From assembly GCF_001677475.2 (NCBI RefSeq), contig NZ_CP015229.1: a stretch of DNA of 64,000 nt; one strand, 5' to 3'. Numbering within the stretch: position 1 is the first letter of the stretch; each line of letters begins with the position of its first letter. Under the pieces are notes generated by a model. The model did not search any database. It worked only from the letters and a program-made list of their open reading frames with translations, and had not been told where the DNA came from. This document shows, in pieces, positions 483-1,154 of this stretch. Source of the DNA: Escherichia coli (GTDB lineage: Bacteria > Pseudomonadota > Gammaproteobacteria > Enterobacterales > Enterobacteriaceae). Made by a program: the position numbers and the translations under genes.

Positions 483-1154
483 AATAGTTACCTTTATGAG
501 TATTTCACTGATGCTTAGAAAAATAGATAAATTTTTCTGTAGTAAAAAGAGAAGTAAACAAATGACATGCATGTTTCTGTTGTAGTGATATCAACTCTAC
601 ACAGTGATATTAAATGGTAGGAAACACTATAAAGTATCAAAAAACGCTCATTTAAAATTATTTGCATGCAATTTAAAAGCATATCTTATTACTAATTGGA
701 ATTTGATGTTGCTATATTGATGTCTATATTAATAATGCCTGTGAATGGTATTTTTGATGTATTTGATATGTTATCAATTTATATTAATTTACAAACTAAT
801 TGTTTCAAATAATACATGGCTGATTATGCGGAAATAAATAATTTCCAACCGGAATTAAGTAGCGGCGGTGACAAGTATTTTCATCTACGTAACTATTCGG
901 AATATTCAGAATATACTAGCGGTTTTTTTTTGAGTTTGATGATTTTTATCAAATCATGACTTTTTTCCTGAAAAGTCAGTAGATATTCATAGGCAAGTAA
1001 GGTTTTATACTTTGCTGACAGGATTCAGGCCTGTCTCAGACTGACATGGATGTAATGAACAAAAGGGAATGGCTATGGAAAATGAGCATCAATACAGTGG
1101 TGCCCGGCATTCAGGGCAAGCCGCATATGTTGCTAAACGTCAGGAGTGCGCAAA

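Follow-up and report, generated by a model that had tools for sequence, protein, structure and literature searches.

The yjiC–iraD intergenic region

The window, which is the whole 64,000-nucleotide stretch of Escherichia coli DNA that was analysed, opens inside yjiC, a minus-strand gene with its start codon at 482–480. The next gene, iraD, runs on the plus strand from 1155 and is followed by hypT on the minus strand. Between the divergent yjiC and iraD lies a gap of exactly 672 bp, at 483–1154, with a GC content of 31.8% against 49.6% for the window as a whole; of all 672-bp intervals along the 64 kb, no more than 2.3% equal or exceed it in AT content. A sequence-only reading had delimited the same interval, called it AT-rich and placed a T9 run at about 917–926. 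Both the limits and the composition stand and the run is present, although it lies a few bases further to the right (Table 1).

IraD, the anti-adaptor that stabilises RpoS, matches its own NCBIfam equivalog model (E = 1e-90), and the gap is almost certainly the promoter and leader region of its gene, set opposite the divergent yjiC. The promoters, the leader ORFs and the CsrA, DnaA, SspA and H-NS inputs are already published, and the ORFs are part of the reference annotation: in K-12 MG1655 RefSeq, ytiC (b4720), ytiD (b4721) and idlP (b4722) are annotated at the matching positions. PGAP calls the three ORFs across thousands of genomes of E. coli, and the majority of the genomes of this species have idlP and ytiD annotated. 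NCBIfam has no model for YtiC, YtiD or IdlP. The functional evidence all comes from K-12 and is carried over to the window by sequence identity.

Of 5426 complete E. coli genomes, 5396 contain the segment, and 4889 of these have it in full. The gap is 98% identical to K-12 and the locus is flanked by yjiC, iraD and hypT, so that it is the same locus, with the same flanking genes, as the K-12 iraD region studied by Park et al. (2017, mBio 8:e01355-17) and by Sass, Ferrazzoli and Lovett (2021/2022). Identical in the two are the P2 -10 element and start site, all four CsrA GGA motifs, the Shine-Dalgarno sequences of idlP and iraD, the DnaA box and the AUGA overlap. From 865 to 1154 the window departs from K-12 only at 1108–1109 (TG to CA). 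Further upstream it has one T fewer near 493, in the 5' region of yjiC, a G to T change at 615, an extra A at 786/787 which shifts the frame of ytiC/ORF23, and two changes in YtiD, P11Q (847) and S17G (864). The neighbouring 6 kb reach a best identity of 98.1% to any complete E. coli genome, so that the window comes from a poorly sampled lineage in which private variants are to be expected.

The longest ORFs with an ATG start in the gap encode 47 amino acids on the plus strand and 55 on the minus strand. Neither length is unusual when compared with dinucleotide shuffles (P = 0.25 for at least 47 amino acids on the plus strand; P = 0.28 on the minus strand), and short ORFs here therefore cannot be validated by sequence statistics. 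The minus-strand ORF (515–682) was set aside, being without any support. By length, then, the earlier view that the gap holds no convincing ORF is sound, but three ORFs are annotated in RefSeq and translated in K-12. The same reading had allowed for an unannotated small peptide; peptides there are, three translated ORFs of which idlP controls iraD, but they are not unannotated, all being in K-12 RefSeq and in PGAP annotation. Its expectation of complex regulation has proved right, with two promoters and inputs from CsrA, DnaA, SspA/ppGpp and H-NS, whereas its impression that there was no specific signal was mistaken, each published site mapping exactly onto the window.

The apparently empty AT-rich gap beside a stress regulator in fact contains genuine short coding sequences as well as a coupling mechanism, and by ORF length alone none of them stood out from chance. 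What the present analysis adds is a lineage-specific half carrying P1, ytiC and ytiD, a near-neutral IdlP whose frame and overlap are kept, and a private frameshift in ytiC. These additions agree with the published view that only the translation of idlP matters for the control of iraD. As a discovery the region carries little weight; it is useful as a calibration point.

Table 1. Features of the yjiC–iraD gap, in window coordinates
Feature	Position	Strand	Remarks
A6 run	639–644		
iraD P1	703–737	+	sigma-70; late-log and DNA-damage induced; start site published
ytiC (b4720)	735–837	+	33 aa in K-12 (4556574–4556675); K-12 stop = 835–837
ytiD (b4721, 'ORF47')	816–959	+	47 aa, intact; 45/47 identical to K-12
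Palindrome TATTCGGAATA	894–904		overlaps near-repeat TTCGGAATAT / TTCAGAATAT (894–913)
T9 run	923–931		within ytiD frame (AGC GGT TTT TTT TTG)
Inverted repeat TTTGAT..ATCAAA	935–953		
Inverted repeat GACTTTT..AAAAGTC	958–977		adjoins 935–953 repeat
T6 run	961–966		
Conserved block AAAAGTCAGTAGATATTC / AAAAGTCAGTRGATATTC	971–988		-47 to -30 from P2 start
iraD P2	1006–1018	+	sigma-70 or sigma-S; all growth phases; start site published
CsrA BS1	GGA 1021–1023	+	published position, leader RNA
CsrA BS2	1043–1052, GGA 1048–1050	+	protected G at -112..-103
CsrA BS3	1065–1071, GGA 1066–1068	+	protected G at -90..-84; overlaps idlP Shine-Dalgarno
DnaA box '-81' TTTTCCATA	1074–1082	-	8/9 to TTWTNCACA; overlaps idlP start codon
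idlP (b4722, 'ORF27')	1075–1158	+	27-aa iraD leader peptide; intact
CsrA BS4	GGA 1077–1079	+	protected G -78/-77 = 1077–1078
iraD Shine-Dalgarno GGAG	1143–1146	+	
Predicted hairpin	1148–1163	+	GCGCA 1148–1152 pairs UGCGC 1159–1163

Promoters and transcriptional inputs

Published coordinates were counted from the iraD ATG, with A1155 as +1, and each falls on the expected base. Two start sites have been mapped in K-12, P1 at -417 and P2 at -137 (bioRxiv 10.1101/2021.05.20.444958; PMC5574718). Allowing for the extra base in the window, the P1 start maps to G737 and would give a leader of 418 nt here; the P2 start, in promoter sequence identical to K-12, maps to A1018 and would give a leader of 137 nt. 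The spacing of the two is 280 nt, as published, and exactly 3 bases from the P2 start precede the GGA of BS1, in agreement with Park et al. Judged by a consensus scan, P1 would have its -35 element at TTGATG (703–708) and its -10 element at TATATT (725–730), separated by a 16-bp spacer, while the -10 element of P2 is probably TATACT (1006–1011). The scan returned 5 promoter-like sites against 4.5 by chance, and these hexamers are thus best regarded as putative. Both -10 candidates and the sequence around the two mapped starts are conserved with K-12.

In K-12, the late-log rise of iraD is due to P1, while P2 is active throughout growth (bioRxiv 10.1101/2021.05.20.444958). The two promoters share their responses: each reacts to ppGpp and SspA, each is under repression by DnaA-ATP, and each is induced by azidothymidine (AZT), a replication inhibitor, independently of LexA (bioRxiv 10.1101/2021.05.20.444958). 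By RNA-seq, AZT raised ytiC 260-fold, ytiD 33-fold, idlP 18-fold, iraD 14-fold and yjiC 11-fold, and in these data the leader genes and iraD are co-transcribed and co-induced (PMC11228462). The DnaA box at the start of idlP is identical to the '-81' box that was mutated by Sass et al., who provide mutational data for it (bioRxiv 10.1101/2021.05.20.444958). Across the window, 8/9 matches to the box number 123 against 119.7 expected, a chance frequency at which the sequence of a box is by itself no evidence of function.

A further input is H-NS, by which iraD is described as being repressed (Battesti 2012, as cited in PMC6064147). The gap has the AT-richness of a promoter island, falling in the lowest 2.3%, and its H-NS occupancy is taken from the K-12 literature. 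As a class, promoter islands are described as mostly non-productive for transcription. The E. coli islands described by Panyukov and Ozoline (2013, PMC3661553) are likewise AT-rich tracts beside predicted foreign genes, but unlike the class the yjiC–iraD gap has two mapped promoters making full-length iraD mRNA.

Translational coupling of iraD to idlP

The reading frame of idlP runs into iraD, its UGA stop codon (1156–1158) overlapping the iraD AUG (1155–1157). In K-12, CsrA represses iraD entirely via translational coupling to idlP and destabilises the mRNA, as established by gel shifts, footprints, toeprints, lacZ fusions, in vitro translation and start-to-stop mutants (PMC5574718). The G residues protected by CsrA in that work land exactly on Gs of the window, where the sequence is the same as in K-12. 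BS1 acts only on P1 transcripts (Park et al., PMC5574718). Even the CsrA site closest to the iraD Shine-Dalgarno sequence is 58 nt upstream of it (PMC5574718); since it is the initiation of idlP that is the target of CsrA, iraD is repressed at a distance.

Taken together with the promoter data, this outlines how the region works in K-12, a scheme that carries over to the window by its sequence identity. Transcription from the distal P1 (737) and the proximal P2 (1018) provides iraD mRNAs, whose leaders would be 418 and 137 nt long in the window, with ppGpp/SspA and DNA damage acting on both promoters, DnaA-ATP repressing them and H-NS binding the AT-rich DNA. Three short ORFs in the leader RNA are translated, of which ytiC and ytiD are present on P1 transcripts only and without effect on iraD. 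Ribosomes that complete idlP are required for the translation of iraD, because RNA structure hides the ribosome-binding site of iraD. CsrA, bound to GGAs near the idlP ribosome-binding site (BS2, BS3 and BS4, with BS1 on P1 transcripts), blocks the initiation of idlP, and this turns off iraD translation and shortens the half-life of the mRNA. From the comparison of lineages, it would be the act of translating idlP that matters, and not the peptide.

In the predicted hairpin, the AUG of iraD and the UGA of idlP both lie in the loop, AAAUGA. This hairpin, together with partial pairing of the Shine-Dalgarno sequence, is predicted in all 7 of 7 sequences, and its stem is invariant, which accounts for the lack of covariation: none of 26 pairs in the P2 leader shows a compensatory change, the region being too conserved to inform. 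Nor is the P2 leader unusually stable when compared with shuffles (z = -0.1). From these two results the present data lend the sequestering structure no independent support; it is backed by the RNase T1 mapping of Park et al. (PMC5574718).

Overlapping stop and start codons, with a downstream ribosome-binding site buried in structure, are features of translational coupling in general. An example is trpB–trpA. The idlP–iraD pair resembles this class in its AUGA overlap, in having the downstream Shine-Dalgarno sequence and AUG in a predicted structure, and in its requirement for upstream translation. It differs in that the upstream cistron is a leader ORF of 27 codons whose peptide is near-neutral and whose initiation is what CsrA targets.

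Comparison among Escherichia lineages

The locus was compared in five lineages: K-12-like E. coli, a divergent E. coli allele, E. coli E69, E. albertii, and E. whittamii together with Escherichia sp. E1V33. The divergent allele occurs in about 490 E. coli genomes, at about 75% identity; it is without yjiC and has uxuR 413 bp from iraD. The same arrangement, with uxuR 411–421 bp from iraD, is seen across divergent E. coli, E. whittamii, E1V33 and E69. Beyond the divergent allele, relatives were sought with an exact 25-mer from the idlP/iraD junction in one genome per species, and matches came from E. albertii, E. whittamii, Escherichia sp. E1V33 and E. coli E69. The search also returned a contig of 605 bp that resembles E. 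coli but is recorded under the name Bacillus coahuilensis. The 25-mer lies inside a 31-nt invariant block at 1137–1167, and since the loci retrieved with it (L008–L012) contain it by selection, the invariance of this block is partly built in; the divergent E. coli allele, which was found by megablast, is the only independent observation of its conservation.

In all five lineages the 27-codon frame of idlP and its ATGA overlap with iraD are kept, and the GGAs of BS2 and BS3 are invariant. E. albertii has lost BS4, and all lineages other than the K-12-like one have lost BS1. The loss of BS1 fits its action on P1 transcripts only, as reported by Park. The peptide is less constrained than the frame: codon 12 of idlP is CAT (His) in the window and TGT (Cys) in K-12, and other lineages have Gln, Tyr or Pro, marking position 12 as a variable residue. 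Over codons 1–20 of idlP, pN/pS is 0.66–1.02, against 0.13–0.24 for iraD, with only 8–22 substitutions behind these values. A near-neutral IdlP peptide with a kept 27-codon length and overlap fits a leader ORF that would be needed for its translation only.

Homology of the other lineages to the window starts only at about 880–890, inside ytiD, so that everything from yjiC through P1 and ytiC to the middle of ytiD is specific to K-12-like E. coli. A yjiC of 62% identity is present in E. albertii, but the spacer of that species is non-homologous and contains no ytiC or ytiD ORF. The core of P2, idlP and iraD appears from this comparison to be the older part, and the half with yjiC, P1 and ytiC a lineage-specific addition.

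Origin of the AT-rich segment

The length and composition of the gap could reflect its origin, if most of it, and especially 483–880, were horizontally acquired AT-rich DNA silenced by H-NS. The case for this proposal is evenly balanced. It draws on the listing of yjiC(-)/iraD(+) in a table of H-NS-bound promoter islands with predicted foreign genes (entry 4554354_526; PMC3661553). It also draws on the absence of yjiC, P1, ytiC and the 5' half of ytiD from the roughly 490 divergent E. coli genomes, E. whittamii, E1V33 and E69, and on the non-homologous spacer that E. albertii has despite its yjiC. The variability of yjiC itself, whose product in the window is 86% identical to that of K-12 in amino-acid sequence, points in the same direction. 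Acquisition is, however, compatible with a role of the gap as the promoter and leader of iraD, and P1, which lies inside this segment, is a functional regulated promoter for the late-log and damage-induced rise of iraD.

The leader ORFs ytiC and ytiD

All three leader ORFs are translated in K-12, as judged for ytiC and ytiD from lacZ fusions (PMC5574718), and the 33-amino-acid product of ytiC has been seen with a chromosomal SPA tag, under the name ytiB (PMC6001520, Table 1). Park's ORF23 and ORF47 both fall in the 280 nt that separate P1 from P2. ORF47 is ytiD, and ORF23 the ytiC frame read from an internal ATG at 768; these identities follow from the end-points of the fusions (-376 and -323) and their 3n+2 design. 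The other candidate start of ytiC, the ATG at 735, coincides with the start site of P1, and its use would call for a leaderless mRNA. Mutation of the start codon of either ORF23 or ORF47 to a stop codon left iraD unaffected (PMC5574718).

In the window, the frame of ytiC shifts after codon 17, giving a new C-terminus: the ORF from the ATG at 735 ends at 812 (25 amino acids), that from the ATG at 768 has 14 amino acids, and the intact K-12-equivalent frame is absent. A 70-mer of the window around 786/787 has an exact match in 0 of the 4889 E. coli genomes that hold the segment, and the K-12 form of ytiC (as a 69-mer) has one in 3124 of the 4889. The idea that the K-12 frame is a minority allele was ruled out by these counts, 3124 exact matches against 0 for the form with the added A. 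The extra A may be a sequencing error.

It is unlikely that YtiC, YtiD or both are functional small proteins, for example membrane-associated peptides of the DNA-damage stress response, and not by-products of leader translation. In favour of functional proteins are their translation in K-12 (SPA tag and lacZ for YtiC, lacZ for YtiD), their place among the most strongly AZT-induced genes, their hydrophobic stretches (IYIIYKLIV in YtiC, FFLSLMIFI in YtiD) and the wide recognition of ytiD by PGAP across E. coli. Conservation argues otherwise, however: neither ORF was found outside the K-12-like lineage, the divergent allele and E. albertii both lacking an intact ORF, ytiC is broken by the frameshift in the window, and both differences between the window and K-12 in ytiD change an amino acid. 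In addition, PGAP gives three versions of the ytiC start (for products of 22, 33 and 38 amino acids), the lengths of both ORFs are within the range of chance, YtiC and YtiD are without a match to an NCBIfam model, and iraD expression is unchanged in the start-to-stop mutants.

Small RNAs and folding of the P1 leader

It is very improbable that a small regulatory RNA, unannotated and independent of the 5' leaders of iraD and yjiC, is encoded here, although the length and AT-richness of the gap and two further observations favour it. The stretch between P1 and P2 (737–1017) folds far better than shuffled sequences (z = -4.2; in K-12, -4.5), and the fall in AZT induction from 260-fold for ytiC to 33-fold for ytiD might mean that some P1 transcripts end early. 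The gradient could equally come from differing baseline levels, however, and a scan of both strands of the gap returned 0 terminator-like sites. A permissive Rfam scan of 300–1700 produced no credible match, its lone hit being a eukaryotic snoRNA model (E = 0.11) that scored 22.6 bits where the gathering threshold is 50. The papers cited here report only P1 and P2 transcripts, and the small RNA suggested by the sequence-only reading is not borne out. Nor is the independent transcript that it envisaged, and which it held to be refuted if the gap were transcribed only as the 5' UTRs of iraD and yjiC, because all known transcription of the gap is the long leader of iraD.

As for the excess folding of the P1 leader, its interpretation as a structured RNA element was rejected. 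The reverse strand of the same stretch folds well too (z = -3.4), and the counterpart in E. albertii folds poorly (z = +1.7). With the reverse strand folding as well, the signal is that of palindrome-rich DNA and not of a strand-specific RNA.

Conserved elements upstream of P2

Among the palindromes of this stretch, TATTCGGAATA, which with its overlapping near-repeat lies about 105–124 bp upstream of the P2 start, is kept in every Escherichia lineage compared. E. albertii has one 9-nt repeat unit deleted there, with the palindrome kept. In the block at 971–988, 78% of the columns do not vary, compared with 54% overall. Within the tract of inverted repeats and block (935–988), one stem pair has changed on both sides between lineages, from TGAT-TTTT-ATCA in some to TGAC-TTTT-GTCA in others.

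These elements, together with the lineage comparison, raise the possibility, put forward tentatively, that the control region of iraD is modular, with an ancestral core of about 270 bp and an added AT-rich segment. The core, common to all Escherichia examined, would consist of the upstream palindromes, P2, the CsrA sites, idlP and iraD. In the K-12-like lineage, the H-NS-bound yjiC segment would have brought or created P1 as a second promoter, inducible by damage and growth phase, together with BS1 and the incidental ytiC and ytiD. The palindrome TATTCGGAATA (894–904) and the block AAAAGTCAGTRGATATTC (971–988) would then be candidate sites for an additional regulator of iraD.

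The P1 leader and the start of ytiC

Two elements have been kept 5′ of the published iraD promoter P2 in every Escherichia lineage compared, a palindrome with its adjoining near-repeat and a separate block (see table); no regulator is named for either in the cited iraD literature. The leader specific to the other published promoter, P1, has a predicted fold much more stable than that of its shuffled versions (z = -4.2; K-12, z = -4.5), and in the predicted structure its 5′ end pairs with positions 985-996. Its antisense strand is likewise predicted to fold well (z = -3.4); the corresponding leader of E. 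albertii is not (z = +1.7). The strong folding in these predictions is probably that of palindrome-rich DNA.

In K-12, induction by azidothymidine (AZT) declines along the leader, from 260-fold for ytiC to 33-fold for ytiD, 18-fold for idlP and 14-fold for iraD (PMC11228462 Table). The drop from ytiC to ytiD is not attributable to P2, because this promoter lies downstream of both genes; it could be due to low baseline counts, or to the loss of part of the transcripts within ytiD.

Compared with K-12, the window carries an extra A which puts ytiC, and with it ORF23 (the ytiC frame read from an internal ATG), out of frame. This 1-bp insertion is private: the exact 70-mer of the window which spans it occurs in 0 of the 4889 complete E. 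coli genomes holding the segment, while the K-12 form of the stretch is found exactly in 3124 of them. It is either a genuine lineage-specific variant or a sequencing error. In K-12 RefSeq, ytiC starts at an ATG whose G coincides with the published P1 start site (-417), so P1 could yield the 33-aa YtiC only through a leaderless mRNA, provided that transcription really begins 2 nt upstream. Starts assigned to ytiC by the PGAP annotation pipeline differ among strains, giving products of 22, 33 and 38 aa.

Features of the iraD locus and its surroundings
Feature	Window position	Remark
YjiC, N-terminal 160 aa	1-482	
ATG, ytiC start in K-12 RefSeq	735-737	
P1-specific leader	737-1017	
70-mer	752-821	
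Extra A	786-787	
Palindrome and near-repeat	894-913	TATTCGGAATA
Block	971-988	AAAAGTCAGTAGATATTC
iraD	1155-1547	
Adjacent 6 kb	1500-7500	includes hypT, iadA, yjiH, kptA, iatD

Lineage and alleles of the locus

The N-terminal part of YjiC shares only 86% identity with K-12 YjiC. Over the adjacent 6 kb the best match among complete E. coli RefSeq genomes reaches 98.1% identity, and the window therefore comes from a poorly sampled lineage. Other stretches that equal the iraD gap in AT-richness lie at ~13450-15450, ~32650-33400 and ~60450-60600 (GC 0.29-0.36, 672-bp windows).

A divergent iraD allele, with ~75% DNA identity and encoding a 127-aa IraD, is present in NZ_CM142663.1 (2351-3147) and ~490 other E. 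coli genomes. It directly adjoins uxuR; yjiC, ytiC and ytiD are all absent, and downstream the place of hypT is taken by a ptsP-like gene. Strain ECCNB12-2 has a K-12-like upstream region but the 127-aa type of iraD together with ptsP, and this mixed make-up suggests that recombination has occurred inside the iraD locus.

IraD, an anti-adaptor, also gives a match below the cut-off of the TssE family of type VI secretion baseplate subunits (TIGR03357, E = 2.8e-12), and on this similarity may be kin to TssE-like baseplate proteins. Finally, a 605-bp contig deposited as Bacillus coahuilensis m4-4 (NZ_ABFU01000118.1) carries E. coli idlP-iraD sequence, 97.8% identical to the window, and is almost certainly E. 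coli contamination of that assembly.
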